From Candidatus Micrarchaeota archaeon (GTDB lineage: Archaea > Micrarchaeota > Micrarchaeia > Micrarchaeales > Micrarchaeaceae), in assembly GCA_030037075.1 (NCBI GenBank), contig JASHRX010000023.1, positions 4,008-68,007 of the forward strand: a stretch of 64,000 nucleotides of DNA, read 5' to 3'. Below the pieces are notes generated by a model. It had not been told where the DNA came from, did no database searches, and saw only the letters and a program-made list of their open reading frames with translations. How positions within the stretch are numbered: the first letter of the stretch is position 1; the number at the start of each line of letters is the position of its first letter. Below are positions 13,461 through 30,322 of the stretch, piece after piece. The position numbers were made by a program, and so were the translations under genes.

Positions 13461-14291
13461 ATTTTTCCAAGCAAGCAGCGATTTGCACACGAGGTTATAA
13501 ATAATTTAACCGCGCTAAGGAAGCATGGTCGTAGTAAATAAAGAAAAAGCCCAGGAGATAAGTAAGCTGTACTCAGAAGGATGGAGCCTTAATAAACTGG
13601 CAGAAAACTTCTCTATAAGTAAGAGCACAATTTACTACAACGTTAGGAAAAGGTTTGGTTTAAAACACCAAACTTCAAGGTTCAACCTAAGCAATAAGGA
13701 ACTGCTAGGCGAATTCCTGGGACTTTTTGCCGGTGATGGTAATTTTGAATTTGATGCTGCTTATCATTACAGGGTGACTATATTTCTCTCCCCAAAAGAG
13801 CGCAAAATACTCAACAGAACAGTGCACATAATTTCCCAATTGTTCGGTAAGAAACCCTGGGTTTGGTACAATAAACGCGGCAACTGCTATTACGTCAGGG
13901 TATACGGCAAACGGATATTTCTATTGCTGAAGAAGTTTCTAAGCTGGGGTAAAAATAAGACACTTACAATCTCATTTAATGATAACGTTTTCAGAGATCG
14001 TAGGTTAATGAAAGGCATAATCCGGGGCTTGATCAATTCAGATGGTAATATATACGAAGCTAGACTAAGGATTTCATTCGGCAGTATATCAAAAACCATG
14101 ATAGAACAAAGTGAGTCTATGTTGACCATACTATCCGTCCCGCACACTTATTCAACCTCAGCTCCTCATCAGAACCACAAAAGATTTTACACAATAGCAA
14201 TAGAAGGTGAAAAGAAAGTTTTAGAGTTTAACAGCAAAATCGGTTTGATAGACTCAGAGAAACAAGATATTCTGCAAAGTGCATTAAACAT
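13458..14291 (+). mobile_element. AT-rich homing-endonuclease cassette inserted at a tRNA-Gly locus
   Basis: The LAGLIDADG ORF has its own TATA box and is flanked by an imperfect direct duplication of a tRNA-Gly 5' half. G+C is clearly lower than in the flanks by hand count of 60-nt samples (38% vs 52%). Confidence 0.55.
13495..13505 (+). promoter_or_regulatory. TATA box of the LAGLIDADG gene
   Basis: TTATAAATAAT is centred about 25 nt upstream of the ATG at 13525, implying a leaderless or near-leaderless mRNA. Confidence 0.45.
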
Positions 14292-14334
14292 GCGCCAGTC
14301 ATCTAGCCTGGAAGGATACCAGCTTCCCAATTGA
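13525..14334 (+). CDS. Double-motif LAGLIDADG homing endonuclease with an N-terminal helix-turn-helix
   Basis: Motif 1 is FLGLFAGDGNF and motif 2 is IRGLINSDGNI, about 105 aa apart. The N-terminus (EGWSLNKLAENFSISKSTIYYNVRK) is a resolvase/Hin-like HTH. Confidence 0.8.
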   Translation: MVVVNKEKAQEISKLYSEGWSLNKLAENFSISKSTIYYNVRKRFGLKHQTSRFNLSNKELLGEFLGLFAGDGNFEFDAAYHYRVTIFLSPKERKILNRTVHIISQLFGKKPWVWYNKRGNCYYVRVYGKRIFLLLKKFLSWGKNKTLTISFNDNVFRDRRLMKGIIRGLINSDGNIYEARLRISFGSISKTMIEQSESMLTILSVPHTYSTSAPHQNHKRFYTIAIEGEKKVLEFNSKIGLIDSEKQDILQSALNMRQSSSLEGYQLPN

Positions 14335-16379: not shown

Positions 16380-17138
16380 ATGCTGTTTTTAGTCGGTACA
16401 GGAATTGCCTACAATGACATATCTATCAGAGCGGCAGAGAGGTGCAAGGGCTGCGATGTATACATCGAGAGGTACACCAGCCTTGTAGACGACGAGAAGG
16501 TAAGGTACCTCTCTGAGCTATTCGGGAAGAAAATAAGCTTCCTTAACAGGGAGGACTTGGAGGAGAAGGCGAAAGAGATAGTCGCAAGGGCCGCAAGCAA
16601 GAACATCGCGATACTTGTCGGTGGAGACCCTCTTACCGCAACGACTCACAAAATCCTTTTCATAGAGGCAAAGAAGCAGTCTGTGGGCGTAGAGGTGCTG
16701 CATTCCAGCTCAGCGATTTCAGCAATAACAGGTGAAAGCGGCCTTGACTTCTACAGGTTTGGGCAGGTGTGCACCATACCAAGATGGTCTGACAGGTACA
16801 AGCCAGTTTCATTCTATGAAACAATAGAAAGGAACCTATCACACAACCTACACTCACTCGTCCTTCTCGACTACTATCCGGAAAAGGGCAGCACTCTCTC
16901 CTTGCACGATGCCGTAAACGAGCTCCTGGCCGCGGAGGAATTCTACAAGAAAGGAATAATAGAAGGTGGCACCAAGGTAATGACGATGCGAAACATAGGG
17001 CTAAGCAACCAAGAGGTAAAAATGACAACTATTGAAGAAGCGAAGGCAGAAGTGGCCTCCGGCATGTTCGCCGTAATATTCCCAGCAAAGCTTTCAGAGG
17101 TAGAGAAAGAGACCATCGATGGAATGACAATGGTGTGA
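16380..17138 (+). CDS. dph5: Diphthine synthase
   Basis: MLFLVGTGI...CDVYIERYTS N-terminus and GDPLTATTH motif of the tetrapyrrole-methylase-fold Dph5. Confidence 0.85.
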   Translation: MLFLVGTGIAYNDISIRAAERCKGCDVYIERYTSLVDDEKVRYLSELFGKKISFLNREDLEEKAKEIVARAASKNIAILVGGDPLTATTHKILFIEAKKQSVGVEVLHSSSAISAITGESGLDFYRFGQVCTIPRWSDRYKPVSFYETIERNLSHNLHSLVLLDYYPEKGSTLSLHDAVNELLAAEEFYKKGIIEGGTKVMTMRNIGLSNQEVKMTTIEEAKAEVASGMFAVIFPAKLSEVEKETIDGMTMV

Positions 17139-18304
17139 GTATCCTCACGATAAACTACGATGCAAAGGAAGGGGCCGTTTACGCGGCAGACCAGTCTACA
17201 GTAGACACGCTCAAGGAGGGCAGCATAGGCACCTACAAGGACGGCAGGCTCTATCTCGAGCCAGAGGAGGCAATGTACCTGATGGACGTCAGGAAAACAG
17301 AGTGCGTCTCTTCTGCAACAGGCGCATCTCTGTCATTCAACGACCTTGCCGAGAAGTACGCAAAGAGCAAGAAGCTAATGGCGAGGTACTTCACGTACAA
17401 AGACTGGAGGGACCGCGGCCTGATAGTGAAGAGTAACGACTTCGAGGCAAAGCAGAATACAAAGACACCAATAAAGAGATACCCCTCATCGAAGCTCAGG
17501 CTCGCAGGGTACAAGCTAACCGGGGTCTTCTTCCCCGAAGACATGACAACCGTAGCCGAGGACTCGCACGACAGCAAGGTCATATACACGGAACTGTGGT
17601 TTGGCCAGTATGGGACGTACAAGCTCGGAGAGCACGGCATACTGAACAAGCTGGATGTCTACGAAACCCTCTACCTTATCGACAACAATGTGCTTACTGT
17701 ATCAAACAGCACCAGGAACGAGGTCTACAACACCGCGTACCAGCGGAGGTCGGATTTCCCAAAGCTCTACCAGGTGTACAGCGACTGGCGCGACAAGGGC
17801 TACGTCGTCAAGACGGGTTTCAAGTTCGGCACGCACTTCAGGATATATTTCCCGGGTGCGAAGCCCATACGCGACGACCCCTCATGGGTGCACTCAAAGC
17901 ACGTAATACACGTATTCCCCAGGGACGTGAAACTGCTCATATCGGAATGGGCGAGGGCAATACGCGTCGCGCACTCCGTCAGGAAGACGTTCATACTCGC
18001 GATACCAGGCAAGAGCCGGAAGAAGAACATGCACATTGACTTCCTGCTATACCACCGAAAGGGCAAGGAAACCGAGAACCCCAAGGAGGACGCGCCGAGG
18101 TACGCAATGCTTTCGCTCAGCGAGGACGAGTATATTGGGGGCAGCGAGCTCTCAGGTGTCATAAACGAGGCCAAGCAGAGGAAGCTTGAGCTGATAATTG
18201 CGATAGCGGACAGGGAGACAGCTGTCACATACTACAAAGTGAGAAGGATAGAGCTGCCAAAGAGCCCATACGAGTACTACGAGATAGACTGGATGCAGCC
18301 CTAG
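17135..18304 (+). CDS. endA: tRNA-splicing endonuclease, single-chain three-unit type
   Basis: A catalytic unit (YSDWRDKGYVVKTGFKFGTHFRIYF...HSKHVIHVF...SVRKTF) lies between an N-terminal EndA-like unit (YKDWRDRGLIVKS, no catalytic triad) and a C-terminal structural unit. At 389 aa it is about twice a homotetramer-type EndA. Confidence 0.8.
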   Translation: MSILTINYDAKEGAVYAADQSTVDTLKEGSIGTYKDGRLYLEPEEAMYLMDVRKTECVSSATGASLSFNDLAEKYAKSKKLMARYFTYKDWRDRGLIVKSNDFEAKQNTKTPIKRYPSSKLRLAGYKLTGVFFPEDMTTVAEDSHDSKVIYTELWFGQYGTYKLGEHGILNKLDVYETLYLIDNNVLTVSNSTRNEVYNTAYQRRSDFPKLYQVYSDWRDKGYVVKTGFKFGTHFRIYFPGAKPIRDDPSWVHSKHVIHVFPRDVKLLISEWARAIRVAHSVRKTFILAIPGKSRKKNMHIDFLLYHRKGKETENPKEDAPRYAMLSLSEDEYIGGSELSGVINEAKQRKLELIIAIADRETAVTYYKVRRIELPKSPYEYYEIDWMQP

Positions 18305-18961
18305 TCACTTTCCTTTGCCCTTCAGGCTCTTCAGCTCCTGCTCGAGTGCCGCGATCCTCTTCTGCGTGCCCTCGTCAGACCCTCCGCCCCTCTTCCTGGC
18401 CGCCGGCTTCCTCATCTTCAACGCAAAGGCGGCAGCGCACACAACAACCACAGCAACTATAACGCCGGCTATGATGTATAGCGCCTGGGAGCTTATCGAG
18501 AAGCCTTTCTTGGGCGGCGGTGCATTTGAATAGATTATAACTTCCTTGCCCAGTCCTCCCTGTATTACCGCGCCGCCGGGGTTGCTCGCATTTGTGCTTG
18601 CCAGCACCTGCATTATGCCATCCCACTTCACCCCTACCTGGTCTGTTGCGGGCATGGAAACGCTCACAAGCACGGTCGTCTGCTGTCCGGGCTGCAGCGT
18701 TCCTGATAGCGGCGTCACAGTGACCGTCGGGTTTATGTTGTTCCCTACTGGGTTATACTGCGGCGGCGAAACAGTGTACGCTATGTCTGCTGACCCGCCA
18801 TCGAATATAGTGTAGCTGAGCGTCTGGTTGCCCCCAAGGCTCACGTTGAATACCAACGACCCTGCTGACTGGCCCAGGTTCTGCGCCCGTGCCTGCGTGC
18901 TAAAAAGGGTGAGAAGCAGCACAGAGGCAAGCGTAATCGTAATCGCGGTTTTGATATTCAT
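18305..18961 (-). CDS. Sec-exported single Ig-like-domain protein with a C-terminal TM anchor and a basic coiled cytoplasmic tail
   Basis: Signal peptide ending ...QARA|QN, a ~125-aa beta-rich domain, a PPPKK hinge, TM ALYIIAGVIVAVVVVCAAAFAL, and the tail KMRKPAARKRGGG...KRIAALEQELKSLKGKGK. Confidence 0.7.
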   Translation of the reverse strand: MNIKTAITITLASVLLLTLFSTQARAQNLGQSAGSLVFNVSLGGNQTLSYTIFDGGSADIAYTVSPPQYNPVGNNINPTVTVTPLSGTLQPGQQTTVLVSVSMPATDQVGVKWDGIMQVLASTNASNPGGAVIQGGLGKEVIIYSNAPPPKKGFSISSQALYIIAGVIVAVVVVCAAAFALKMRKPAARKRGGGSDEGTQKRIAALEQELKSLKGKGK

Positions 18962-18980: not shown

Positions 18981-19502
18981 TCAGCAGACATTAGTTATTA
19001 TAATGTTCTGCGAATAGGTGCTGGCCACCTGCCCGGCCGGGATTCCTAGGCCAAACCATACATTCGTGCTTGAGGAAGAGCCAACCACTATCGCTGTGTT
19101 GGCCGGTATAAGTGTCAGTGCCGTACCAGATGCGTAGCTTGTGGACGAGCTCGATGAATATACGGTGTTGCTCACGCCGAAGTTGTTGCCGCCCGACACC
19201 CAGTTACTGCCAGAAACCGCAATTACCGCCCCTCCGTTTCCTCCGTTAGTATCCAGCACGTTCTGCGATGTCGTGAGGCTGTTCTGGCTTGCGGTAATGG
19301 TACCGAATGATATGGACTGCGTGTTTAGCGATATTTCGCATCCTGCAGGCACCGTCAAAGATAGTATTACGTTCGGTGCTATCTGGTTCGTCGCATACGC
19401 GACCTGGACACCGAGCTGCAATGCCAACAGGGCAAGAAAGACCCCAGAGGCTATCCCTGCAGCTATAGCCACCCCGAGAATTCTTGATCTATCAGCATAC
19501 AT
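18981..19502 (-). CDS. Small secreted protein, paralog 1 of 3, with a Cys-terminated beta-rich domain
   Basis: 173 aa with an N-terminal hydrophobic signal ending VAYA and a mature domain ending TYSQNIIITNVC-stop. Its ATG overlaps the stop of paralog 2 (ATGTATGCTGA). Confidence 0.75.
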   Translation of the reverse strand: MYADRSRILGVAIAAGIASGVFLALLALQLGVQVAYATNQIAPNVILSLTVPAGCEISLNTQSISFGTITASQNSLTTSQNVLDTNGGNGGAVIAVSGSNWVSGGNNFGVSNTVYSSSSSTSYASGTALTLIPANTAIVVGSSSSTNVWFGLGIPAGQVASTYSQNIIITNVC

Positions 19503-20013
19503 TGGTTATCACCACGTTCTGCGAGTAAGTTCCCGCGGCCTGGCCAACCGGCACTCCCGTACCGAACCATATATTCGAGCTTGTAGCGCTCGCAACTGCA
19601 ATGTTAGTGTTCGCAGAAGCTGTAGTCAGCTGCGTTCCCGATGCATAGTTTGTTGCAGAGCTAGACGAGTATGTTGTGTTCTTGACCCCGAAGCTGTTCC
19701 CACCAGATATCCAGTTCCCTCCGTATACCCAAATGTATGTTCCAACGTTTCCTCCATTGGTGTCCAGCACGTTCTGCGATGTCGTAATCGAATTGACTCC
19801 GGGGTTCAGGTCTCCAAAATTGGCAGAGAAGACGTTCAGTGATATTGCGCACGAAGAGGGCACAGTCGCAGTAGCAATCACGTTCGGCGCTATTTGGTTT
19901 GCGTATGCCAAAGGCACAGCGCTCTGGAATAGAAACAAGACGGACATCGCGACTGCCGCAACTACAATTGCAACAACAGCGGCTCCAAGCATATTTCTAT
20001 TCGGCAAGGTCAA
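19492..20013 (-). CDS. Small secreted protein, paralog 2 of 3, with a Cys-terminated beta-rich domain
   Basis: 173 aa, signal ending LAYA, domain ending TYSQNVVITNVC-stop; a TATA-like CTTTATATATG lies about 30 nt upstream. Confidence 0.75.
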   Translation of the reverse strand: MTLPNRNMLGAAVVAIVVAAVAMSVLFLFQSAVPLAYANQIAPNVIATATVPSSCAISLNVFSANFGDLNPGVNSITTSQNVLDTNGGNVGTYIWVYGGNWISGGNSFGVKNTTYSSSSATNYASGTQLTTASANTNIAVASATSSNIWFGTGVPVGQAAGTYSQNVVITNVC

Positions 20014-20039
20014 TCGCCCAGCAAATTATCAAATCCTTA

Positions 20040-20050
20040 CATATATAAAG
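20040..20050 (-). promoter_or_regulatory. TATA box for paralog 2 (and the coupled paralog 1)
   Basis: The minus strand reads CTTTATATATG about 30 nt upstream of the start at 20013. Confidence 0.4.
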
Positions 20051-20069
20051 GTTTACTTTTCCTCGCTTG

Positions 20070-20591
20070 CTAGCACAGGTTTGTCACCAGTATGTTTTGT
20101 GTGTATGTGTCTGCCGTCTGTCCCGGTGGGATGCCGAGGCCGAACCAAATTGTTGCGCCAGACGCAGCCCCCACTGCAATGTTGGTGTTCGCAGGTATAA
20201 GTGTGAGTGCATTCGCTGATTTGAAAAGTACGCTGTTGCTGCTCGACCACACCGTGTTGCTTACTCCAAACGTGTCTAGTGCATTAGCCCCCATCCAGTT
20301 GCCTCCGCTCACTGCTACGAACGCGCCGCCGTTGCCGTTGTTCAAATCCAAGACATTCTGCGATGTCGTGACGGTGTTAGACCCAGCCAGTACCACGCCA
20401 AAGCTTATCGACTGCACCAACGATATCTCGCACGAGGCCGGCACGGTTAATGAGAGTATGACATTTGGGGCCACGGAGTTGTTTGCGTATGCAGGCACCA
20501 CGGCGTATTGCAGCATAAAAATTGAGGACACTGCAGCCAAGGCAAAAGCCGCTAGCACTATTGACCTGATTCCCAACTCGCGCAAAGACAA
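20070..20591 (-). CDS. Small secreted protein, paralog 3 of 3, with a Cys-terminated beta-rich domain (TTG start)
   Basis: 173 aa, signal ending PAYA, domain ending TYTQNILVTNLC-stop. The first in-frame start after an upstream stop is TTG. Confidence 0.7.
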   Translation of the reverse strand: MSLRELGIRSIVLAAFALAAVSSIFMLQYAVVPAYANNSVAPNVILSLTVPASCEISLVQSISFGVVLAGSNTVTTSQNVLDLNNGNGGAFVAVSGGNWMGANALDTFGVSNTVWSSSNSVLFKSANALTLIPANTNIAVGAASGATIWFGLGIPPGQTADTYTQNILVTNLC

Positions 20592-20618
20592 ACATCATCG
20601 CCAGTATCAATAAGCCTA

Positions 20619-20630
20619 GATAATATTTAA
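20619..20630 (-). promoter_or_regulatory. TATA box for paralog 3
   Basis: The minus strand reads TTTAAATATTAT about 30 nt upstream of 20591. Confidence 0.4.
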
Positions 20631-20655
20631 ATCTCTCATTTGGCCCCGTGCCAGG

Positions 20656-23600
20656 CTAGCACACATTCGTCAGCACTATATTCTGCGTGTATGTCCCGGC
20701 CACTTGCCCAGTTGGTATCCCCAAGCCGAAGTATATGCTGTTAGAGCCTCCAGAACCCGTATTTGCTGGTATAAGCACAAAAGTGTTCGAGGTTACCAAA
20801 GTAAGGGCGTTCCCGGCATAGCTGTCGTCGCTCGTGACGTCCCAGAGCGTGTTGCCCACGCCAAAATTGTTATCCCCAGATATCCAGTCGCCTCCATAAA
20901 CCCAAAGGTAGGCGGGGACCCCGCCGTTGTTAACGTCAGTAACTACCTGGGTCGTGCTGTACGTCTCGCTCGCTATTATGTCCCCAAACAGTATGCTGCT
21001 GGTGCTCAAGGATATCTGGCAGGCATTCGTGTTTGTGAAGCTGACGAGTACGGTATTCGGGGCCGCGGAAGTTCCCGACGACGGGTTAGGGATATAGTTT
21101 CCTGCGGAGAAAACATTCGCTATTGTATAAGAGTAGGAGCCCGGAGGGTCTGCAAAAACTATACTATTCGGGGCAATTGCATTAAGCGTTATTCCATTGT
21201 AAATGACGTTCCACGTCGCTCCTGCAGGAAGCCCGGATTCCGTGAAATTGATTACTCCCTCCAAGGTGCCGGGCGTGGCCCCGGGCATTATGCCGAGAGG
21301 CGGATAGGTCCGGGCGTTGACCCACTGAACAGTAAAGGAGTTTGTGGACGATGTTGGCGTAGTTGCCGCCAGCACCACAGAAAAGTACATCGCATTAATC
21401 GGTATAGTGGAGAGAGTCGTCACACTGTTCGCGAAGTAGTCGTAATGCTGGTTTTGTGACGCAGTGGCGTTCCATCCAATCCCTAAAACTTGCGGGAAAT
21501 TCCCGTTGGATAAAATCTTGGTGCCCAGTGCCGCAGTGCCAGAGGAGCTAATCTGTATGGGCACAACGTTTGCGCTACCCGCTAATCCATTAGAGCCCAC
21601 CATATAGCCTGACTCATAACCCTTGCCTCCCGCGGCGAACGTGACCGATGTGCTCTCCTCAAATCCAGCCGTCTTGGTGGATCCCTGTAATGTTTTGGGC
21701 GTAGTTATTAGGCCCGCGAACCAGTACGGCCACGCGGTGTATGCGTTCAAAGAAACAATGCCGGCACTATCTGCGGTTTCTGCGGTGAGCTTTAGGCCAT
21801 TGTCCACAGTTTCTGAAGCCCCTGTCCCGCCAACCGTACCGGACCACTTGCTCGTGTTGAGCGCGGCTCCCCTGAAATCATCATAGAAGCTAAATACCGT
21901 ATTCCCGTTGTCGTATTCGGCATATTGGTCGGAACCGCAGCCGGATATCGTGTTGGTTGGGTTCGAGCACGACAACTGTGGTGCCTCGCCAGTTGTAGTT
22001 CCATTCATCAGGGTAACGCTATTCACTGCGAATCCCATCAGGATTACTTGCGAGCTAAGGTCTCCGATGCCGAGGCCAGTGTTCATTCTTAGCCAGTATA
22101 CCGTATTTCCAGACGTGTATAGGTCGTTTGATGACTGCTCATTCACCAAGTTGCCGTCCAGCCAGGAGTCTATCAGCGTACCATTCGTATAGGCAAACTC
22201 TATGTTTGTCAGAGTGTTTGTTTCATACTGCTGGTACTCAAGACTATTCACCGCAACCATCTCCTGGAACCCCGTGCCTGTCCCTACGTTTTGATTGTTA
22301 GTCAGCGTAATTGGGACCCAATAGATTATGTTAGGAGGTATTATCGGCGTGCTCACAAAAGAGGAGGCATTGCCCAGCAAGTACACTCCCGATACCAGGG
22401 AGTTCGCAACCGCGCAGTAGTATGTTGGGATGGCAGGCGCGGCGAGGTACGTTGCCGAAGTCTGCCCGGATAAAATCGAAAGGCTGTTGCAAGCATACGT
22501 CGGCGAGGTATACCACTGCCAGGTGTATGAGCCTGAGCCCCCAGTAGCAGATGCAGTCAGTAGTACATTGCCACCGGGCGTTATTATGGGGTTATCGGGG
22601 GTTATTGTCACTGTAGGGTGCCCAGGGTTAGGCGGCAGGCTGTTGAAGGTGACGCTCGGCATTATCCCGTTCGGCGGATAGGCCCTGACTCTAGTCCAGT
22701 TCAGGCCATAGGCCGCACCATCGGTAGCCTGGCTTATAAATTCTATGTAGTACTGCTGCGAGGCAGGAGTGTTGGCCGCAGGCGTGTTCGAGCTCACAAT
22801 AAGATCGTTCACAGCGTATATCGCATTCGAAGCGGGAAGATACTGGGTTGAGAGGCCATAGGTTGTGCTAACAGGAGTCATTATGGCGCCGCCGTAAGAA
22901 ACATTGTGGGTAACTGTCTTGACGGCTGTTCCCATCAAAATATGCATTCCATTGAAAGCTATGTAAACCGCATTGGCTACATCTCCTCCTGTCTCAGAGA
23001 GAGCCCAAGTGGTGGTTGCTGCTCCACTGCCGCTTTTTCCGAAGTAGAATGCGCCCGGTCTGTATGTCATTCCGTTAGTAGTGATGTAGAAGTTTGCCTC
23101 CACAATGTTACCAGGGTTCACCAGCGGACTGTTGACAGCTACGGTCGCCCTCGTTATTCTTATACCATTGCCAGGGTCGGTCAACGACGCGCTGGAGCTC
23201 CATCCTGCTGGCAGGCCATTCGAGAAGTTCCAGTACTCCAAGAAGACGCTGTTCCCGTTGTCATATTGTCCATATGAAGTCTCAGGGCATCCATAGGGGC
23301 ACTGAAGTTGAGGCGCAGCCCCTGTCACCACGTTATCGAGCAGGTTTATTGAAGTGGGCGCGAATCCCATGAAAACGGTAACCGCATTCGCGCTAGACGG
23401 GTTTATCCCGTTCCACAGATTCAGCCAAAAAACGTCGTTTGACACGGTGTTCAGGCTGTTCGCCTGGAGTTCGTTAAGCTGGTTGCCTTCGAACCATGAA
23501 GGCACCAGGGTGCCGTTGGTATAGAAGAACTCTATGTTTGACATGTTCGACGACTCGTACGCCTGGTATGTGATGCTGTTAACTACCAGCATCTGCTGGA

Positions 23601-25137
23601 AGGGCTTGGGCGTCGCCGCTACTGCGTTGTTCGTTATCGTGATTGGTACGTAGTCTGTTATGTTGATCGGAACTACTTTTGCTGATGGGTCTACAGGGCT
23701 GTAATTTGCATTGCCAGGGGAGTCAAACGTCACCAACGCATCCTTTCCTGCAGGTAGCCCATTGATCCGCAATGTTCTGCCAACATTGCCGTCCGTCACG
23801 TTCGCAGAGTAACCGTTAAACACCCTGCCCCCTACAGTTACATTATAGCCGAACTCAAGGTTGTTATGCGGTACGCTTCCGTTCAACGTTATTGAAACGT
23901 TGTAGGTCTTCCTGCCGTCAAGGACAGGGACATCCACCACATCTGTTGCGCCCGATCCCGATATCTTAACACCAGCTACCGACAAGGTGAGCGAAGGCGT
24001 GGCCTTGACGACCGCAACCCTATAATGCAAAATGCTGTTGCTGCCGCTGTAGGCCACATAGTTGAACCTACTTCCTGCACCAACTAGGTTGCCCTTAGAG
24101 TAGAACGAGCCATAAGTTACATTAAACACAACATTCTGTACAGATGCGTTAGTTATATTGCCCTCCAGCAAGCCTAGTACGTTCCGATATTGGCTTCCAT
24201 TGAGCGGCGTCATGTTCTGGAGCTGCGGTAGGCTAAATTGGCTGCCGATGAGCAGCTCGCCGCTCTCCGAAAGTCCACCGACAAGCGGCCCGTAGGGCGA
24301 GTTTGTTGCAAGGTTCTGCCCCTCGGGAATGGTGGTGCTTGTTGAAGATGTGGTGCTCGTAGTAGTGGTTGCCGCTTGCGCAAAATATGTTACGTTGAGA
24401 GAGCTTCCGGCCGCCAGTATTCCATTGGCTGGGTGCGGCTCATAGACGTAGTTGCCAACCACCACTGGAAGTATATCAAATGGGTAGTTCCCAGGAAGGC
24501 TTGTAAAAACAATCGAGCCGGGGGCGATAACGTTTACTGGTACCGAGTTATATGTGGCCTCCCACGGCGCGTTTATTGGTAAGCCCCCCTCGGTAAATAC
24601 CGTATAGATTTTCAGCTGTATGGTTGTGGTCACAGTGCTTTGTGTGGTTGTTGAGGTTGCCGTAGATGTTGCTGATGTCGTTACCGTGGTTGTTGAAGTT
24701 GAGGATGCCTCGGTCGAATTAAAAGTAATCGCAGTGGAGTTTCCTGCAACAACGTAGCCGTTCGACGGCATGGCTGTGAAGACGAGTCCATTCTGAGGTT
24801 GCGCATATGCACTGAAGTTGTAGCCCCCTGGCACCACCTGGAATATTATATTGGATGGTGACACAGCCTCTTCTGTCACTCCGTTATACACCACTCCCCA
24901 CACATATCCAGCTTCCAGCCCAGATTCGTAGAAATTTGCGTACGCAGTTTCGGGTACTGTGGTAGAAGACGAAGAGGTTGTGGATGTAGTTGTGCTAACA
25001 GTAGTCGTATCTGAATTGCTGTCCTGGAACATAAGCTTGTGCTGTGGGGCAGAGGCAATGTGGCTGGCCTGCAGTAGCGCTATTATGACTACCGCAAGCA
25101 AAATTGCAGCAAAACAGCTGCGTTCTAGCACCCCCAT
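20656..25137 (-). CDS. Giant (1493 aa) secreted multi-domain surface protein or adhesin ending in the same Cys-terminated domain as the three small paralogs
   Basis: Signal peptide (..HIASA|PQ), Ser/Thr-rich linkers, and three ESGLP-type beta domains. Two large internal repeats start with (Y/W)VPIT(I/L)TNN; I read them as DUF2341-like plus concanavalin/LamG-like. There is also an Ig-like domain (GGSGSYTWQWY). The C-terminal 125 aa ends TYTQNIVLTNVC-stop. Many N-x-S/T sequons. Confidence 0.85.
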   Translation of the reverse strand: MGVLERSCFAAILLAVVIIALLQASHIASAPQHKLMFQDSNSDTTTVSTTTSTTSSSSTTVPETAYANFYESGLEAGYVWGVVYNGVTEEAVSPSNIIFQVVPGGYNFSAYAQPQNGLVFTAMPSNGYVVAGNSTAITFNSTEASSTSTTTVTTSATSTATSTTTQSTVTTTIQLKIYTVFTEGGLPINAPWEATYNSVPVNVIAPGSIVFTSLPGNYPFDILPVVVGNYVYEPHPANGILAAGSSLNVTYFAQAATTTTSTTSSTSTTIPEGQNLATNSPYGPLVGGLSESGELLIGSQFSLPQLQNMTPLNGSQYRNVLGLLEGNITNASVQNVVFNVTYGSFYSKGNLVGAGSRFNYVAYSGSNSILHYRVAVVKATPSLTLSVAGVKISGSGATDVVDVPVLDGRKTYNVSITLNGSVPHNNLEFGYNVTVGGRVFNGYSANVTDGNVGRTLRINGLPAGKDALVTFDSPGNANYSPVDPSAKVVPINITDYVPITITNNAVAATPKPFQQMLVVNSITYQAYESSNMSNIEFFYTNGTLVPSWFEGNQLNELQANSLNTVSNDVFWLNLWNGINPSSANAVTVFMGFAPTSINLLDNVVTGAAPQLQCPYGCPETSYGQYDNGNSVFLEYWNFSNGLPAGWSSSASLTDPGNGIRITRATVAVNSPLVNPGNIVEANFYITTNGMTYRPGAFYFGKSGSGAATTTWALSETGGDVANAVYIAFNGMHILMGTAVKTVTHNVSYGGAIMTPVSTTYGLSTQYLPASNAIYAVNDLIVSSNTPAANTPASQQYYIEFISQATDGAAYGLNWTRVRAYPPNGIMPSVTFNSLPPNPGHPTVTITPDNPIITPGGNVLLTASATGGSGSYTWQWYTSPTYACNSLSILSGQTSATYLAAPAIPTYYCAVANSLVSGVYLLGNASSFVSTPIIPPNIIYWVPITLTNNQNVGTGTGFQEMVAVNSLEYQQYETNTLTNIEFAYTNGTLIDSWLDGNLVNEQSSNDLYTSGNTVYWLRMNTGLGIGDLSSQVILMGFAVNSVTLMNGTTTGEAPQLSCSNPTNTISGCGSDQYAEYDNGNTVFSFYDDFRGAALNTSKWSGTVGGTGASETVDNGLKLTAETADSAGIVSLNAYTAWPYWFAGLITTPKTLQGSTKTAGFEESTSVTFAAGGKGYESGYMVGSNGLAGSANVVPIQISSSGTAALGTKILSNGNFPQVLGIGWNATASQNQHYDYFANSVTTLSTIPINAMYFSVVLAATTPTSSTNSFTVQWVNARTYPPLGIMPGATPGTLEGVINFTESGLPAGATWNVIYNGITLNAIAPNSIVFADPPGSYSYTIANVFSAGNYIPNPSSGTSAAPNTVLVSFTNTNACQISLSTSSILFGDIIASETYSTTQVVTDVNNGGVPAYLWVYGGDWISGDNNFGVGNTLWDVTSDDSYAGNALTLVTSNTFVLIPANTGSGGSNSIYFGLGIPTGQVAGTYTQNIVLTNVC
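21268..22326 (-). repeat. Internal protein-level repeat B of the giant gene (DUF2341-like + lectin-like module)
   Basis: Residues ~938-1290 (IIYWVPITLTNNQNV...NIEFAYTNGTLIDSWL...GEAPQLSC...YDNGNTVF...ARTYPPLGIMP) align by eye with residues ~493-830. Confidence 0.7.
22648..23661 (-). repeat. Internal protein-level repeat A of the giant gene
   Basis: Residues ~493-830 (ITDYVPITITNNAVA...NIEFFYTNGTLVPSWF...GAAPQLQC...YDNGNSVF...VRAYPPNGIMP). Confidence 0.7.
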
Positions 25138-25187: not shown

Positions 25188-25976
25188 CTAGTACTTCTTC
25201 CTGAAGCGTTGGATGAATCTCTGCCAGAACGAAGCATAAACCGGCTGCATCACCGGAGCCCCGCCTCCTCCGCGCGATGCGTATTTGTTAGACACGCCCT
25301 TCATGGCCTTCGAGAAGCGCGCCCTCGGTTTGTATAGGTATGCAGGTATATGCGCCGCGATGCTCATGGGTATCGCCTCATCAGCGGGCAGCACCCCCGC
25401 AACATCCCCTTCGTACATGTCCGCTATCTCGTTGACGTTCAGCTCCCATCTCGAATATCCCACCTTGTTCACAATCAAAGAGTGCTTCAGGTGCAGCTTG
25501 TCGTACGCGTCAGACAGCCTGACCGCGCTCGCCGAAGAGGGCATGTCAGGCACCGTCACTATTATATCTTCATCGAAGTTCTTCAGCGCAATTCCGGAAT
25601 CGTATCCCGGCGCCGTATCAACCACGACAAAATTGTAGTTGGACTTCCTGAGTTGCTGCATGAAGCTTGAGATGGCCCCCGGCCTCTGAATGAAAGCCGA
25701 TGTCTTTATTTCTCCAGGGAGCACGTGCAGCCCGCTCGGTGCATGTATTGATACGGCCTTCTCCAGTTTCGCTCTCTTGAGTATCACTGCCTGAACTCCC
25801 GCATTTGTCTCCTCCAAACCAAGGTGGAAGCCAACGCTCGGGTTTACGAAATCCATATCGACAAGCAGGGTCTTGTAGCCGTAGCTTCTGATCGCAGCGG
25901 CCAGGTTGGTCGAGATTGTGGTCTTGCCCACGCCCCCCTTCTGGGATGACACTCTTATCATGTACGGCTTAGGCAT
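25188..25976 (-). CDS. MinD/ParA-family P-loop ATPase with a C-terminal amphipathic helix
   Basis: Deviant Walker A SSQKGGVGKTT, LLVDMD, VVVDTAPG; C-terminal SFWQRFIQRFRKKY. The start overlaps or abuts the stop of the upstream 574-aa gene (alternative ATG at 25961). Confidence 0.85.
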   Translation of the reverse strand: MPKPYMIRVSSQKGGVGKTTISTNLAAAIRSYGYKTLLVDMDFVNPSVGFHLGLEETNAGVQAVILKRAKLEKAVSIHAPSGLHVLPGEIKTSAFIQRPGAISSFMQQLRKSNYNFVVVDTAPGYDSGIALKNFDEDIIVTVPDMPSSASAVRLSDAYDKLHLKHSLIVNKVGYSRWELNVNEIADMYEGDVAGVLPADEAIPMSIAAHIPAYLYKPRARFSKAMKGVSNKYASRGGGGAPVMQPVYASFWQRFIQRFRKKY

Positions 25977-27693
25977 TCTCGTCTCCTTTTATCCTGTTTT
26001 TGATCCTCGCCAACTTTATCATGTCCTCATGGGTGTACTTAGGCTCTCTCTTCCTGTACGCACGTTCAATAGTCAGCAAGATAATTAATATTATCGTTGC
26101 AGCTCCTATCCCAGCAAGCGCAACTTTAGCCTTCTGCAACTGGGCTGCCGTCTCACTTTCTGAAGCCTGGCTGCCTTTTGTCGTGGTAGTCGCCTTTCCT
26201 CCCTGGGGGGCCAGCACTAAAACAGGTATGCTCTGCGATAGGTTGAACTGCGCTGAGCTTATGTACAGGTTGTATATCAGCGTTCCAGTAAAGTTGCCCA
26301 CCGATGTGTAAAAAGAGCGCTGCAGCAGCTGGTTGGGCGTCGCATTCACCACCTGCACCGGATTTCCGATGCTGGTCGAGAGCGGGCCTGTCAAATAGAA
26401 GGTAACCGGCTGCGAGAGGGTTCCCGTGTAGAAGACCGATACGGATATGTTGCCAGATGAATCTGTGTAAAGCTGCGGCGCGTGTATGTCAACAACTTTG
26501 ATAAGGCTGCTGCTCGATACGGGAGTTGGCGCAGCGAAGATGTTCTGCGCGAACGAAACCAGTTCCGGCTTCGTTATATTTGTCACTTGGTAGTATGCAT
26601 AGAGCTGCTGACCTGCGAGTATCTGGCCCACGCTCCAGGTTATCGTGTACCCATTCGGCCCTAGCGTCACGTTATTCGGAAGGCCATACGCCGATATGTC
26701 CGATATGTTGTTTATTGCGGGAGCTGGAAGCACGGTGAACAGAGTTCCATTGTATATGGAGCTGTTCCCGTTGTTAACAATCTCTATTACCCCGCTAAGC
26801 GACCTTAGAGAGTCTGTCAGGTATGTCTGGCCAACTACCTGCAGGCCATTGTTCAGCGCGCTGTAAACCGTGAATGTAAGGTATTCTGTCTGAATGTGGG
26901 TTGGGGACCCTATTACAGATACGTTCACTATCAGCGGTACGATATAGGTTCCAGGAGTGGTATTCGCATTAGTTTTGAAGGTGGCCTCCAGGCCCGCCGT
27001 CTGCCCGGGCGAAAGCTTCAGGCTTGTAACCGAGAGGCTAAGCAGGCGCGTGAAGTTCGAGCCCACGTTGAGCGTCACGGTCTCGTTCGCGTTAGCCGTG
27101 GACAGCAGGGCTATCTGGGTCACAAGCCCCTGCCCCGCTATTGCCGATGTAGTGAGAGGTATTGTCGTTATCGATAAACCTGGCACGGGCGTTATTGGTG
27201 GAGGTCCTCCGCCTCCGCCGCCCCCTCCGGAGTTGCGGTTGCCGTTGTTAGACTGCGTAACATCAAACTGGAGGCTGCTGGAGGGCGACGTCTCGTACGC
27301 GCTGTCCAGGTAGTACCCTGCGAATGCGCTAAGCGTATAGGTGCCCTGGTCAGGTATCGCCCCAGATATGTAAACTACTGCGTTCTCCGCCTGGCTGGGC
27401 GAAAGCGGCACCAGCTGGTATGTAGAGGTAAAGGAGGACGGCCCCGCGATTGATACGTTTAGTATCACGTTCGTCGCAGCGTACGATCCATAGTTTACCA
27501 AAGTCACGTTGAGCGGTACTGTCGAGCCTGTACTGAAGCTAGAGGCGGTGCTCAGGTTCGTTATCAGGACTGCGTTTCCTATGACTGATACGTTGGCCAA
27601 TACAGAACCGCCGCTGCTAGCGGCAGATATAGCTGCAAACTGCAGCGCAGCCACAAAAATCAATCCAGCTATGAGCGCGAAGTTACTTTTCAT
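25969..27693 (-). CDS. Sec-exported multi-Ig-like (CARDB/NEW3-like) protein with a C-terminal TM anchor
   Basis: Signal peptide, a CARDB-like first domain (PLNVTLVNYGSYAATNVILNVSI), a G8P3 hinge, further beta domains, TM VALAGIGAATIILIILLTI, and a basic tail. Confidence 0.75.
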   Translation of the reverse strand: MKSNFALIAGLIFVAALQFAAISAASSGGSVLANVSVIGNAVLITNLSTASSFSTGSTVPLNVTLVNYGSYAATNVILNVSIAGPSSFTSTYQLVPLSPSQAENAVVYISGAIPDQGTYTLSAFAGYYLDSAYETSPSSSLQFDVTQSNNGNRNSGGGGGGGGPPPITPVPGLSITTIPLTTSAIAGQGLVTQIALLSTANANETVTLNVGSNFTRLLSLSVTSLKLSPGQTAGLEATFKTNANTTPGTYIVPLIVNVSVIGSPTHIQTEYLTFTVYSALNNGLQVVGQTYLTDSLRSLSGVIEIVNNGNSSIYNGTLFTVLPAPAINNISDISAYGLPNNVTLGPNGYTITWSVGQILAGQQLYAYYQVTNITKPELVSFAQNIFAAPTPVSSSSLIKVVDIHAPQLYTDSSGNISVSVFYTGTLSQPVTFYLTGPLSTSIGNPVQVVNATPNQLLQRSFYTSVGNFTGTLIYNLYISSAQFNLSQSIPVLVLAPQGGKATTTTKGSQASESETAAQLQKAKVALAGIGAATIILIILLTIERAYRKREPKYTHEDMIKLARIKNRIKGDENA

Positions 27694-27780
27694 GCTAACA
27701 CAAGCGTGCGGCCTACACGCTAACAGCTAAACCTTCCTTTAACGGAAATAAAAGGCTTCCGCTATCTTGTGGTAAAAGAG

Positions 27781-27855
27781 CGGGCCCAGGGGGATTTGGA
27801 CCCCCGACCTACTGGTTAAGAGCCAGCCGCTCTGACCAGGCTGAGCTATGGGCCC
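27781..27855 (-). tRNA. tRNA-Lys (CTT), intron-less
   Basis: The minus strand reads GGGCCCA-TA-GCTC-AGCCTGGTCA-GAGC-G-GCTGG-CTCTTAA-CCAGT-AGGTC-GGGGG-TCCAAAT-CCCCC-TGGGCCC-G (75 nt). Confidence 0.9.
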
Positions 27856-27932
27856 TCCAAAGTGTTGTGTATCAACAATATAAAGCACTTTTTATCAATC
27901 GGGTCTTTAAGCCTGCGTTCCAAGAGCTAAGC

Positions 27933-28583
27933 ATGCAGCTAGCTCAGTTGGAGGCCATAGTCGCCACAATCATAGTCACTTTCTTCGCCGCTGTGCTCGC
28001 CATATTAATGACGCAGTCGTACCTGAAGAACAGGAAGAGGAGCCACATGTTCTGGAGCCTAGGCCTGTGGGTCTTCGTCCTCAGCGCCTTCCTCGAAATC
28101 CTCTTTGCGCTGAACATATACTCCGCAATACTGATGGCCGCCTATCTCTATTCAGTAGTCATACTGGTGCAGCTCCTTTCGCTGGGCTCGATACAGCTAA
28201 TATCGTCAAAAAGGATAATCAACAGCTACACGATATTCACCGCTATAGTTGCTGTCGTCGCTCTGATTTCTGTAATAGTGGGTCCAATCAAAAACCTGAT
28301 TGTAAACTACATAGTCTTCGGCCAGCCGACGCTGTTTATAGTGGTCGCGTCCTCCCTCGCCGTCTTCCCTGCAGCAGTAGTGCTGATATGGGTCGCTGCG
28401 ATAGGCTACAAGCATACGAGATCAAATAAGATGCTCGGCATCATCGCCGGGGTTTTCATAATATCTATAGCAGGAACGCTCTACATCGTATACTTCCCAT
28501 CGGTCCTGTACATAGCAGAGCTGCTGGGCGTCTTCCTGCTCTTTTATGGATTCTACAGCCCACCACGCAAGAGGGTAAAGTAG
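27933..28583 (+). CDS. Polytopic membrane protein of unknown function
   Basis: About 6-7 TM helices. The ATG at 27933 sits downstream of a TATA-like AATATAAAG; the ORF-track start at 27867 would overlap that promoter. Confidence 0.55.
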   Translation: MQLAQLEAIVATIIVTFFAAVLAILMTQSYLKNRKRSHMFWSLGLWVFVLSAFLEILFALNIYSAILMAAYLYSVVILVQLLSLGSIQLISSKRIINSYTIFTAIVAVVALISVIVGPIKNLIVNYIVFGQPTLFIVVASSLAVFPAAVVLIWVAAIGYKHTRSNKMLGIIAGVFIISIAGTLYIVYFPSVLYIAELLGVFLLFYGFYSPPRKRVK

Positions 28584-28976
28584 TCACACTCTTTTCCTGA
28601 AGTAGAATATTATAGACAGGGCTATCAGTGCATCCAGCGATAGGCACCATATGCATATTCTAAGCAACAAATACTGAGCGACGATTGAGTACATCATGCC
28701 GCCTATGCCACCAAGGAACCAGATGTCCGATACGACGCCCAACCTGTTCTTGAAGTAGGAGAACGGCACCAGGGCCAATATGAACCATGTTAAAGACCAT
28801 ACGGCTAACGGGACGTGCAGGATCACGGAATACTGGCTTGTTATCACAGACTCGCAGTTGATGATGTTGCCGCTCCCGCACACCAACGCGCCTGGGTAAT
28901 AGTGAACATAAGTAACATATATCGATACGAGTATGCCCACTATAAGAACAGCAAGGAGCGGCTTGTTTATGTTCAT
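28584..28976 (-). CDS. Vitamin K epoxide reductase (VKOR) family membrane thiol oxidase
   Basis: Four TM helices, a loop cysteine pair CGSGNIINC (7 residues between), an SQYS..HVP motif, and the active-site CIWC in the last TM. Confidence 0.75.
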   Translation of the reverse strand: MNINKPLLAVLIVGILVSIYVTYVHYYPGALVCGSGNIINCESVITSQYSVILHVPLAVWSLTWFILALVPFSYFKNRLGVVSDIWFLGGIGGMMYSIVAQYLLLRICIWCLSLDALIALSIIFYFRKRV

Positions 28977-30322
28977 ATTTTCGCCACCTTCTTGGCAAAA
29001 GCGCTCAATATGTTGTCAAGAGCAGGCCCCTTCGGCTTCAGTTCGTAGTAAACCTGCACGAACGGCTTGTTAACGTTCAGCACCTCTCTAAGGTTGGTCG
29101 GGGTCGCGGATAAGACTATGTCGCACTCCGCCCTGTTTATTGTTGTCTGCATGTCTCTGACCTGTTTCGGGCTGTATCCCATAGCTGGCAGCTCCTTCCC
29201 CAGCTTTGGGTACTTCGTATAAGTGTCCCTTATGGTGCCCACCGCGTATTTCTTGGCGTCTACCACCTTGCCAACCTTGTAAAGCTTCGCGGCAACAGTG
29301 CCCGCACCGAAGGTCATTCCGCCGTGGGTTATTGTCGGGCCGTCCTCTATTATCAGTGCGCTTGCGCCCTTTATTATCTTGGTGTTGTCAGGAGAGACTA
29401 TGGACTCCGCATATACAATTTCAGCGTCTTTGTTCCTGCTCCTGATGTCCGTTACCGCCAGGTCGATGTTTTTCTTTGTTGCGGAGTTGATTTTGTTGAT
29501 GAGGAAGACGTCAGATATCCTTACCACAGATTCGCTCGGATAGTAAAGGATCTCGTCCTCCGGCCTTAGAGGGTCGATTACCATGATGAGCATATCGGGC
29601 TTGATGAAAGGCGCGTCATTGTTCCCCCCATCCCAGAGTATCACATCCGCTTCCTTCTCAGCCGCCCTCAGCACCTTCTCGTAGTCCACGCCGGCATAAA
29701 GCACGAACCCGTTCCTTATGTGCGGCTCATAGTCCTCGCGCTCCTCTATGGTGCACTTATACTTGTCGAGGTCCTTCAGCTTCGTGTAACGCTCAACAAT
29801 CTCGTCTTTGAGTATCCCGTAAGGCATCGGGTGCCTTATCACCACTACCCTTAGGCCTTTCGCTTTAAGGTATCTCGCAATGTACCTGGTTGTCTGGCTC
29901 TTCCCCGATCCGGTCCTGGCGGCGCATACCGCTATCACAGGTTTCGATGACTTTATCATCGTCCTGCTGGGTGCTACAATCCAGAAATCCGCCCCTGCAG
30001 CATTAGCCACGCTCGACTTGTGCATTACCTCTGCATACGGCAGGTCGCTGTACGCCTGTACACACACGTCTGCCTCGAATCTTTTTATCAGGCTAGCAAG
30101 CAGAGATTCGTCAAATATGGGTATCCCCTTGGGATACAGGCTCCCGGCAAGCTCCTTTGGGTACGCCCTGTTGGCAATGAAAGGTATCTGATTCGCAGTG
30201 AAGGCAACTACTTCATAATCCGCATTGTTCCTAAAAAGCACATTGAAATCGTGGAAGTCGCGGCCCGCCGCCCCGATAATTATGACCTTTTTCCTTCCCA
30301 TATTTACCGCTTCACTTACCAT
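28973..30322 (-). CDS. COG2403-family P-loop protein (predicted GTPase / cyclic 2,3-diphosphoglycerate synthetase-like)
   Basis: KKVIIIGAAGRDFHDFN N-terminus and Walker A ARTGSGKSQT. A family call from memory; an alternative ATG at 30301 is possible. Confidence 0.5.
   Translation of the reverse strand: MVSEAVNMGRKKVIIIGAAGRDFHDFNVLFRNNADYEVVAFTANQIPFIANRAYPKELAGSLYPKGIPIFDESLLASLIKRFEADVCVQAYSDLPYAEVMHKSSVANAAGADFWIVAPSRTMIKSSKPVIAVCAARTGSGKSQTTRYIARYLKAKGLRVVVIRHPMPYGILKDEIVERYTKLKDLDKYKCTIEEREDYEPHIRNGFVLYAGVDYEKVLRAAEKEADVILWDGGNNDAPFIKPDMLIMVIDPLRPEDEILYYPSESVVRISDVFLINKINSATKKNIDLAVTDIRSRNKDAEIVYAESIVSPDNTKIIKGASALIIEDGPTITHGGMTFGAGTVAAKLYKVGKVVDAKKYAVGTIRDTYTKYPKLGKELPAMGYSPKQVRDMQTTINRAECDIVLSATPTNLREVLNVNKPFVQVYYELKPKGPALDNILSAFAKKVAKI

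Follow-up and report, generated by a model that had tools for sequence, protein, structure and literature searches.

A family of two-cysteine immunoglobulin-like domains in a conserved Micrarchaeota gene cassette, with a possible role in a strand-donation surface fibre

We analysed a 64,000-nucleotide (nt) stretch of a Candidatus Micrarchaeota genome (NCBI GenBank assembly GCA_030037075.1, contig JASHRX010000023.1, positions 4,008 to 68,007 of the forward strand; hereafter the window). A preliminary description made from the letters alone had noticed in it a beta-rich domain with two invariant cysteines, recurring in four neighbouring proteins, and had suspected a DPANN source, with which the assignment of the organism to the Micrarchaeota agrees. 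Here we describe the family to which this domain belongs, the conserved gene cassette that encodes it, and the evidence that its small members may be subunits of a surface fibre assembled by strand donation.

A seven-gene cassette encodes four copies of one domain

The cassette occupies positions 27693-18305 of the minus strand, where seven co-directional genes follow one another. The first is gene A (25969..27693; 574 amino acids (aa)), and its end overlaps by 8 nt the gene for a MinD/ParA-type P-loop ATPase (25188..25976; 262 aa). These are followed by the gene for a giant secreted protein of 1493 aa (20656..25137), a candidate tip or cargo subunit, and by three small-subunit genes of 173 aa each, namely P3 in position 1 (20070..20591), P2 in position 2 (19492..20013) and P1 in position 3 (18981..19502), the last of which overlaps P2 by 11 nt. 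Gene D (18305..18961; 218 aa), which encodes a candidate membrane anchor and/or tethered chaperone, starts 19 nt past the P1 stop codon and closes the series. P3 has its own TATA-like box about 30 nt upstream of the gene (TTTAAATATT at 20622-20631), and another stands at about the same distance upstream of P2 (TTTATATA at 20042-20049); these boxes, the overlap of P1 with P2 and the short gap between P1 and D together make it likely that [P3] and [P2-P1-D] are the transcription units here. The start codons of P2 and P3 are uncertain: the public annotation begins P2 (P0181) at the ATG at 19992, giving 166 aa, and P3 (P0003) two codons later, giving 171 aa, whereas the longer TTG starts yield N-termini with a charged n-region that fit the homologues better.

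The observation that one domain is common to four of these proteins was confirmed, and the positions given for it were correct. P1, P2, P3 and the last ~120 residues of the giant (20656..21021, from Cys1373 to Cys1493 and the stop codon) share 49-60% pairwise identity and 44 invariant columns, both Cys included, and each copy ends in TNVC (P1 and P2) or TNLC (as in P3) directly before the stop codon. Exactly two Cys occur in each of P1-P3, and the giant's domain likewise has two, 121 and 1 residues from the end of the protein. The domain proper, which we call the Cys-clasped domain, has the two Cys as its end residues and measures 119 aa in P1. The 17 mature residues that precede the first Cys in P1 form a separate N-terminal extension, and P3 likewise comprises a signal peptide, an N-terminal extension and the domain.

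The domain belongs to a large family without annotation

Similarity within the family is far beyond chance, with database relatives at E = 1e-42 to 1e-53. Word-indexed searches recovered only close relatives (11 proteins), while an exhaustive profile search recovered 533 clusters (50% identity) at E <= 1e-3, 56 of them at E <= 1e-30. Three architectures recur among the retrieved sequences: single-domain proteins of ~170 aa (72 sequences), tandem two-domain proteins of ~320 aa (48), and large proteins of 400-3400 aa (68), so that proteins consisting of the domain only are the commonest. In the large proteins the domain sits at the extreme C-terminus, and the parts upstream of it are otherwise unrelated among many of them. 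The terminal Cys is present in 158 of 161 retrieved sequences, the exceptions being truncated, frameshifted or extended by one Gly, and a census of 254 domain copies in 204 proteins found that all 201 complete terminal domains carry both Cys and finish exactly at the second. The rule that the first and last residues form a disulfide pair, with nothing after the last Cys, serves as a simple finder for such proteins.

The commonest C-terminal tail in the family is ENSC. About 89% of tails, ENSC, TNVC and TNLC among them, share a conserved Asn at the second position ahead of the terminal Cys and read N-x-C (in the window, for example, at 18984-18992), and Cys-less internal domains have ENYN[VA][TS] or ENEN.. 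at the same spot, containing an N-x-S/T sequon. The conserved Asn of the N-x-C tail could be a structural cap or a glycosylation site.

The domain had been described as uncharacterised, and Pfam, NCBIfam and PDB sequence searches bore this out. Neither the four window proteins, nor 57 diverse members, nor eight large members had a match above threshold in Pfam or NCBIfam scans, and the family profile found no significant match among PDB sequences. Weak matches to the GH123 N-terminal domain recurred, which we attribute to a generic 'P.G..aG.Y...I.i' hairpin of immunoglobulin (Ig)-like domains. Named database relatives are all 'hypothetical protein' of Micrarchaeaceae or Micrarchaeia, save for those of two metagenome-assembled genomes labelled Marsarchaeota, and the titles of five related loci from reference genomes all give Candidatus Micrarchaeota or Micrarchaeaceae. 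We also considered whether the domain might be an S-layer protein and rejected this, because the S-layer protein of Micrarchaeota belongs to PF05123/PF05124.

Cysteine pairing is probably within the domain

With an invariant Cys at either end, the domain allows two arrangements, both of which had been raised in the preliminary description. The two Cys may staple the first and last strands of one domain, or they may build a covalent head-to-tail polymer, in which the first Cys of one subunit is disulfide-bonded to the C-terminal Cys of the next. The disulfide cross-linked endospore appendages of Bacillus are the nearest known covalent disulfide-linked fibres. The tandem proteins are informative on this point. 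The terminal Cys of their first domain is internal, with a linker behind it, so the fold does not need a free C-terminus, and among their internal domains 22-23 copies retain both Cys and about 21-24 have neither, with none having just one; the few apparent single-Cys domains are truncated fragments, one alignment shift and one frameshift. Wherever the first domain is Cys-less, its partner in the same protein keeps both Cys, which is the opposite of what pairing of z(n) with a(n+1) predicts. The Cys-less state is distributed as one main clade of 17 and three scattered sequences, so the number of independent losses on which this pattern rests is small.

Covariation across 190 non-identical domain sequences agrees with pairing inside the domain. 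The column pair 18-136, which holds the two Cys, is the second strongest overall (z = 7.0), the pairs 20-134 and 20-133 stand in antiparallel register with it, and the pairs 19-49 and 22-46 connect the first strand to its next neighbour in the sheet. Since both Cys of one domain are kept or lost together, and since columns 18, 20, 133, 134 and 136 covary as an antiparallel ladder, the alignments indicate an intradomain disulfide that would clasp the ends of adjacent antiparallel first and last strands, as the stapling proposal had held. The covalent polymer could draw on the placement of the two Cys and on a vitamin K epoxide reductase (VKOR)-type thiol oxidase gene nearby. It is opposed by the loss of Cys in pairs from the same domain and by the intradomain ladder, by the unpaired Cys that single-domain large proteins would be left with, and by the lack of Cys in the N-terminal extension, where fibres of the endospore-appendage type would be expected to carry a connector Cys for inter-subunit disulfides. 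We consider such a polymer very improbable.

The VKOR-family thiol oxidoreductase, whose presence in the window had been correctly noted, lies outside the core cassette at 28584..28976 of the minus strand (Pfam VKOR, E = 6e-13). It is one gene away from gene A both in the window and, in the same position, in the related locus L001 (2598-2981), and it was not seen in the 10-kb flanks of the more distant cassettes L008-L010. Its vicinity is consistent with oxidative folding outside the cell.

The predicted fold is pilin-like but outside every family compared

An AlphaFold model of mature P1 (136 aa), built from a 57-sequence alignment, is all-beta, with a mean predicted local distance difference test score (pLDDT) of 95.6 and a predicted template-modelling score (pTM) of 0.85; an earlier run with 13 close sequences had been of low confidence (pLDDT 47). 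The beta-rich sandwich anticipated from the sequence is thus borne out by the model, and we read the domain as a secreted Ig-like beta-sandwich of about 120 aa. The first 20 residues of mature P1 have no assigned beta-bridge in the monomer model.

A Foldseek search of the PDB gave no match at E < 1e-3. Of the 50 matches that ranked highest, about half are subunits of fibres formed by donor-strand exchange (CsuA/B, CS20, PapA, FimA/F/G/I, CfaB, SafA, the pilin domains of PapG and CsuE, TasA, and TLP-1a/b), among which TLP-1a/b, whose fibrils assemble by donor-strand exchange, have the highest query-normalised TM-scores (0.56-0.59). The remaining best matches are GH123 N-terminal domains and ASH/MSP/PapD-like domains, and a search of viral structures returned only generic Ig-like domains of phage glycosidases. 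The domain is therefore pilin-like in shape and stands outside every described pilin family with which it was compared.

Small subunits carry an N-terminal extension that large proteins lack

Before the first Cys of the small subunits lies the motif N-V-x-A-x-V-x-V-P-x-x-C, which is kept in the 72 single-domain copies and in both the first and the second domains of tandem proteins (48 copies each), where the unit of extension plus domain is repeated head to tail. In mature P1 the extension comprises residues T38-G54 (19341..19391, minus strand; TNQIAPNVILSLTVPAG). It has the character of an amphipathic strand, which is situated a few residues past a predicted A-x-A signal-peptidase site, and contains no Cys; we propose it as a donor strand. 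Counted back from the first Cys, positions -4, -6, -8 and -10 are all occupied by hydrophobic residues in 136 of the 162 domains of small or tandem proteins; none of the 66 large-protein domains has all four, and the mean number of hydrophobic positions is 3.6-3.95 in the former as compared with 1.3 in the latter (Mann-Whitney p about 1e-37, a nominal value because the sequences are not independent).

In the large proteins, the first Cys is instead preceded by the last strand of varied upstream modules, by a YPPNGVMP-type module and linker, or by a Ser/Thr linker. The giant of the window had been thought to resemble the small proteins in this region, but its domain does not come with an extension. 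TVLVSFT, the strand ahead of Cys1373, corresponds in the alignment to the final strand of a module present three times in the giant; in the two remaining copies Ser/Thr linkers come after the equivalent strand, so the resemblance belongs to the upstream repeat module. Since the extension is absent from large proteins, the domain would consequently fold without it, and the extension appears to be kept only where no cargo precedes the domain. In the chaperone-usher systems (Fim, Pap, Csu), polymerising pilins carry an N-terminal extension and the pilin domain of two-domain tip adhesins is without it. That the same split recurs here is our main reason for proposing strand donation in trans.

An A-Y-A sequence precedes the mature part of P1-P3, and the signal-peptidase-I type A-x-A site that had been suggested there seems plausible. 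The accompanying suggestion of a class III signal, made from the ..LG before the hydrophobic stretch of P1 and P2, was not upheld, and with it we weighed a type IV pilin-like arrangement, in which the hydrophobic helix would be retained after class III cleavage as the filament core with the beta domain outside. Besides the ..LG, the long hydrophobic segment (about 20-27 aa) and a helix at residues 4-39 in a low-confidence AlphaFold run would accommodate it. The N-termini of 50 small members have no [KR]-[GA] cleavage motif before the hydrophobic helix, however, nor is there a conserved [KR]-G motif across the family, and a small-x-small motif is conserved where the hydrophobic segment ends. 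The nine cassettes compared below contain no gene for a prepilin peptidase, a PilB/FlaI-type ATPase or a PilC/FlaJ platform protein, and the conserved module is the beta domain and not the helix, occurring at the C-terminus of large proteins that have ordinary signal peptides of their own. To a type IV arrangement we accordingly give next to no credence. The small-subunit signal peptides (in the window, for example, 19392-19502) are unusual for the length of their hydrophobic segments (about 23-27 residues), the signal peptides of D, A and the giant being shorter (about 16-18 residues), and among close relatives they have a near-invariant Gln (..L-Q..).

The cassette is conserved in different genomic surroundings

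We compared the five-part cassette (A, the ATPase, the giant, the small genes and D) in nine distinct genomes (the window, L001/L004, L002/L003, L005, L006, L007/L008, L009, L010 and L012). An orthologue of D directly follows the last small gene in all nine; gene A has an orthologue in eight, adjoining the rest of the cassette; the MinD-type ATPase comes directly after A in six; and in seven a large protein with the same C-terminal domain adjoins the small genes. The number of conserved small-subunit paralogues ranges from one to three. Orthologues that match P3 and P2 by position exist in L001 and L002, those of P3 at 68-70% identity, which suggests that the P1-P3 paralogues are old and probably specialised. 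No sortase-like protein, peptidase or other candidate processing enzyme was found in the cassette.

The flanks of the cassette differ between genomes, with a tRNA endonuclease and RadA in the window, FtsZ and Rad50 in L008 and L010, and PTH2 and CarS in L009, and in L012 the order is permuted to small-D-A-MinD-giant. With at least three different genomic surroundings and a permuted order, the linkage is that of a functional module and not mere conserved genome order. This bears on the possibility that the family consists of ordinary secreted Ig-domain proteins without any role in assembly, a lineage-specific expansion in which the domain acts as a generic C-terminal stabiliser and its linkage reflects genome order. 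The generic nature of the Ig-like fold and the sub-threshold level of all pilin similarity would suit such an explanation, but the persistence of the cassette across surroundings, its tight coupling to D (the 19-nt gap in the window), the strong conservation of the extension motif and the lack of any residue beyond the terminal Cys in 201 of 201 complete terminal domains do not, and we think it unlikely.

Large proteins are in some cases encoded away from the cassette. In one genome the cassette and a 1799-aa protein with the domain are on different contigs, and in L010 a 3421-aa family member lies 8 kb from the cassette. These positions fit a view of the large proteins as interchangeable clients of one cassette. 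They would also fit a docking or anchoring module that does not polymerise, in which the domain, as a complete and self-sufficient Ig unit, would fasten surface proteins to a receptor in the envelope (D, A or the S-layer), much as cohesin-dockerin, S-layer homology (SLH) or sorting systems do; on this view the small proteins would serve as competitors, fillers or short adaptors, and the extension would bind in cis or to the receptor. That many large proteins which are otherwise unrelated invariably end in the domain speaks for such a module, as do the linkage of the membrane-anchored D and A, which is constant or nearly so, and the moderate to high confidence with which the extension is placed in the monomer model. 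A simple anchor does not explain why the extension is absent exactly where cargo is present, and the predominance of domain-only proteins (72 single and 48 tandem as compared with 68 large), the one to three conserved small paralogues and the head-to-tail repetition of extension and domain in tandem proteins also tell against it. We regard docking as a possibility that deserves to be kept in view, though one to which we assign well under even odds.

Proteins encoded with the small subunits

The product of gene A begins with a signal peptide, followed by CARDB-like Ig-like domains and a poly-Gly/Pro linker, and ends in a C-terminal transmembrane helix with a basic tail in the cytoplasm. Its matches to CARDB and NPCBM_assoc are weak, with CARDB found in three of six orthologues; the C-terminal tail is amphipathic as well as basic. 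The ATPase matches Pfam AAA_31, ParA and CbiA at E = 1e-16 to 1e-18, and the NCBIfam archaeal MinD model at E = 7e-32, below the cut-off of that model.

The giant consists of a signal peptide, Ser/Thr linkers, two DUF2341-like/YPPNGIMP modules ending W.RVRAYPPNGIMP, three ~80-aa 'GLP..W..YNG' modules with the pattern 'F.E.GLP..W.V.YNG...P..G....GN.t.ItF', and the C-terminal Cys-clasped domain. These module types also precede the Cys-clasped domain in many unrelated large members, and none of them reaches the Pfam threshold.

D comprises a signal peptide and one Ig-like domain of ~115 aa (MSP/ASH type), behind which come a transmembrane helix and a basic, coiled tail in the cytoplasm. A search of its profile against the PDB placed Hydin at E = 0.0057 and major sperm protein at E = 0.11, and Cep192_D6 was matched in five of six D orthologues, always below the cut-off; the Hydin, major sperm protein and Cep192_D6 families are ones that we take to belong to the PapD-like superfamily. 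Comparison by hhalign of D with PapD, and of D with the pilin-like family, indicated no relationship, and no cassette gene scanned had a match to PapD_N/C or Usher. The tail of D is short and coiled-coil-like in the window, and very long and rich in Arg, Lys and Ser in L008 (11028-11798), L009 (10556-11284) and L010 (10988-11860), for example ...RRARARGRSRAASTTRR...KKRRRRR. The basic tails of D and A could be binding sites for the MinD-type ATPase.

Other genes of the window

Directly upstream of gene A lies the window's only tRNA gene, tRNA-Lys(CTT) (27780-27855, minus strand), and between the two is a TATA-like CTTTTATTT. On the plus strand beyond D, positions 17135-18304 encode a 389-aa tRNA-splicing endonuclease in which a catalytic unit is accompanied by an additional unit at the N-terminus and by a C-terminal stretch that matches the beta subunit; we take it to resemble the three-unit enzyme of ARMAN/Micrarchaeota, which fits the taxonomic assignment. 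A free-standing open reading frame (ORF) at 13525-14334 of the plus strand combines a helix-turn-helix domain with a LAGLIDADG_3 domain and may be a homing-endonuclease-like or regulatory protein. Four other sizeable ORFs had no significant match in Pfam or NCBIfam, namely 60-3449 (minus strand, 1129 aa), 39218-41239 (minus, 673 aa), 27867-28583 (plus, 238 aa) and 28973-30322 (minus, 449 aa); the 238-aa ORF has a positional counterpart in L001 between VKOR and gene A.

Comparison with known fibres and attachment systems

In function, the systems closest to the proposed fibre are chaperone-usher pili and the archaeal strand-donation filaments. We compared the family first with chaperone-usher pili (the archaic Csu type, SCPU PF05229, together with FimH, PapG and CsuE), whose pilins are among its best fold matches (TM about 0.5, E >= 9e-3). 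Both have Sec-exported Ig-like subunits with an alternating-hydrophobic N-terminal extension, an Ig-like partner of the PapD-like superfamily encoded alongside, and a tip adhesin, or in our case a large protein, that has a C-terminal subunit domain and no extension. At the N-terminus of CsuA/B, the local motif V-x-V-x-x-x-C-x-[IV]-S...FG aligns with the family. The systems differ in that the disulfide of the family would join the first and last residues of the domain, whereas that of pilins joins strands A and B; in that the archaeal system has neither an usher nor an outer membrane; in that D is a single membrane-anchored Ig domain, whereas the chaperone is soluble and has two domains; and in that the Micrarchaeota cassette links a MinD-type ATPase and a large single-pass membrane protein. 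Membership of SCPU was considered and rejected, the Pfam match being E = 0.23-0.25 (12 bits, as compared with a cut-off of 22.4) and confined to 2 of 57 members.

Several archaeal filaments are known to be assembled by strand donation, including the Sulfolobus threads (Saci_0406), bundling pili (AbpA), cannulae (CanA) and the twin-arginine translocation (Tat)-dependent Tafi (TafE/TafA, with the tip protein TafC and the membrane anchor TafF). In these, a beta-sandwich subunit receives the N-terminal strand of its neighbour, as we propose here, without type IV machinery, and the locus encodes major and minor subunits, a tip protein and a membrane-anchored beta-domain protein. Their arrangement of signal peptide, donor strand and beta-sandwich, with tip and anchor proteins, fits P1-P3, the giant and D by layout only; Saci_0406, AbpA, CanA and TafE were absent from the 50 best PDB fold matches and from the PDB-sequence profile search at E <= 10. 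No terminal Cys clasp, no reuse of the subunit domain at the C-termini of many giant proteins and no MinD-like ATPase has been described for the threads and bundling pili, CanA or Tafi, and Tafi further differs in having a dedicated signal peptidase, which is absent from the Micrarchaeota cassette. The TasA/TapA fibres of Bacillus and the environmental TLP-1a/b are likewise donor-strand-exchange fibres of beta-sandwich subunits, but their subunits exceed those of the family by about 100 residues, lack a Cys clasp and share no operon partners with the family, and their E-values are not significant.

Conserved modules that end many unrelated large secreted proteins are also found as C-terminal sorting or attachment domains, such as the C-terminal domain of the type IX secretion system and PGF-CTERM. 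The Cys-clasped domain shares with these its extreme C-terminal position on many unrelated large secreted proteins, and differs from them in that it also occurs alone and in tandem, which is the majority state, and in the strand extension of its domain-only proteins. A full-text literature search for DPANN together with 'donor strand' returned a general review only. The terminal Cys clasp, the subunit domain as a C-terminal module of many giants, the membrane-anchored Ig partner and the linked MinD ATPase all appear to be new features.

Discussion

We propose that the cassette encodes a strand-donation surface fibre made of small subunits and bearing interchangeable giant tip proteins, and we place the probability of this reading at roughly one half. 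In each of P1-P3, a Sec signal peptide would be followed by a 17-residue extension, hydrophobic on one face, and then by the domain. After export and removal of the signal peptide, the extension would bind to the domain of a neighbouring subunit as a beta-strand, by donor-strand complementation or beta-augmentation, and repetition of this contact between small subunits would give a non-covalent linear fibre. The large proteins could accept a strand and could not donate one, and would therefore stand at the distal end as interchangeable tips or adhesins. The membrane-anchored Ig-like D would hold or cap the proximal end and may hold subunits before assembly, while A and the MinD-like ATPase would position or assist assembly across the pseudoperiplasm, which has been reported to measure 20-25 nm in Micrarchaeota. 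It is the polymerisation, its polarity and the roles of A, MinD and D that we infer; the family, the pattern of Cys pairing, the class of fold, the restriction of the extension to small subunits and the conservation of the cassette come directly from the comparisons described above. Strand-donation pili with tip and membrane-anchor proteins are already known from archaea, and filaments of unknown composition have been seen by cryo-electron tomography between a cultured Micrarchaeon and its host.

Several results weigh against such a fibre. The pilin fold matches are not significant (TM about 0.5; E = 3e-3 or above), and the GH123 N-terminal domain and the ASH/MSP Ig domains match equally well. 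Comparison by hhalign of the family with the CsuA/B family alignment gave a probability of 13% over 34 columns (the N-terminal strand, the first Cys and FG), and that of a single sequence gave 1.3%, from which we conclude that the family does not belong to SCPU/Csu and that what remains is a local resemblance of the N-terminal motif. The likeness of D to the PapD-like superfamily is sub-threshold. Covariation between extension and domain is weak (z <= 3.6), and no acceptor site was located. The extension itself has fairly high confidence (about 70-94) in the monomer model and so may pack in cis; moreover, in about a third of large proteins a different beta-strand, with which the upstream module ends, stands equally far ahead of the first Cys, and a cis role for a strand in this position is thus possible.

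A bolder form of the proposal would make the system a hitherto unrecognised, archaea-specific counterpart of the chaperone-usher pathway, in which a tethered PapD-like D and the multi-Ig A hold the Cys-clasped pilins at the membrane and polymerise them there, under the control of the MinD-type ATPase, with many giants loadable as the tip, to form a DPANN host-attachment organelle. Taken as a whole, we find this version rather doubtful.

DPANN archaea need physical contact with other cells, and the structures by which they attach are almost unknown. The family and the cassette described here are solid: a large, unannotated and mostly Micrarchaeota-labelled family of 533 clusters connects one cassette to dozens of giant surface proteins in which no known domain is recognisable, and the domain merits a family entry of its own, whatever its function. 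If the fibre is real, it could be the means by which Micrarchaeota cells attach to hosts or surfaces, and the model would put names to what builds a DPANN surface organelle: its subunits, its tip proteins and its candidate assembly factors. It would also add a further independent class to the archaeal filaments built by strand donation, and its part in host attachment would be testable in the existing co-culture of Micrarchaeum with Thermoplasmatales.

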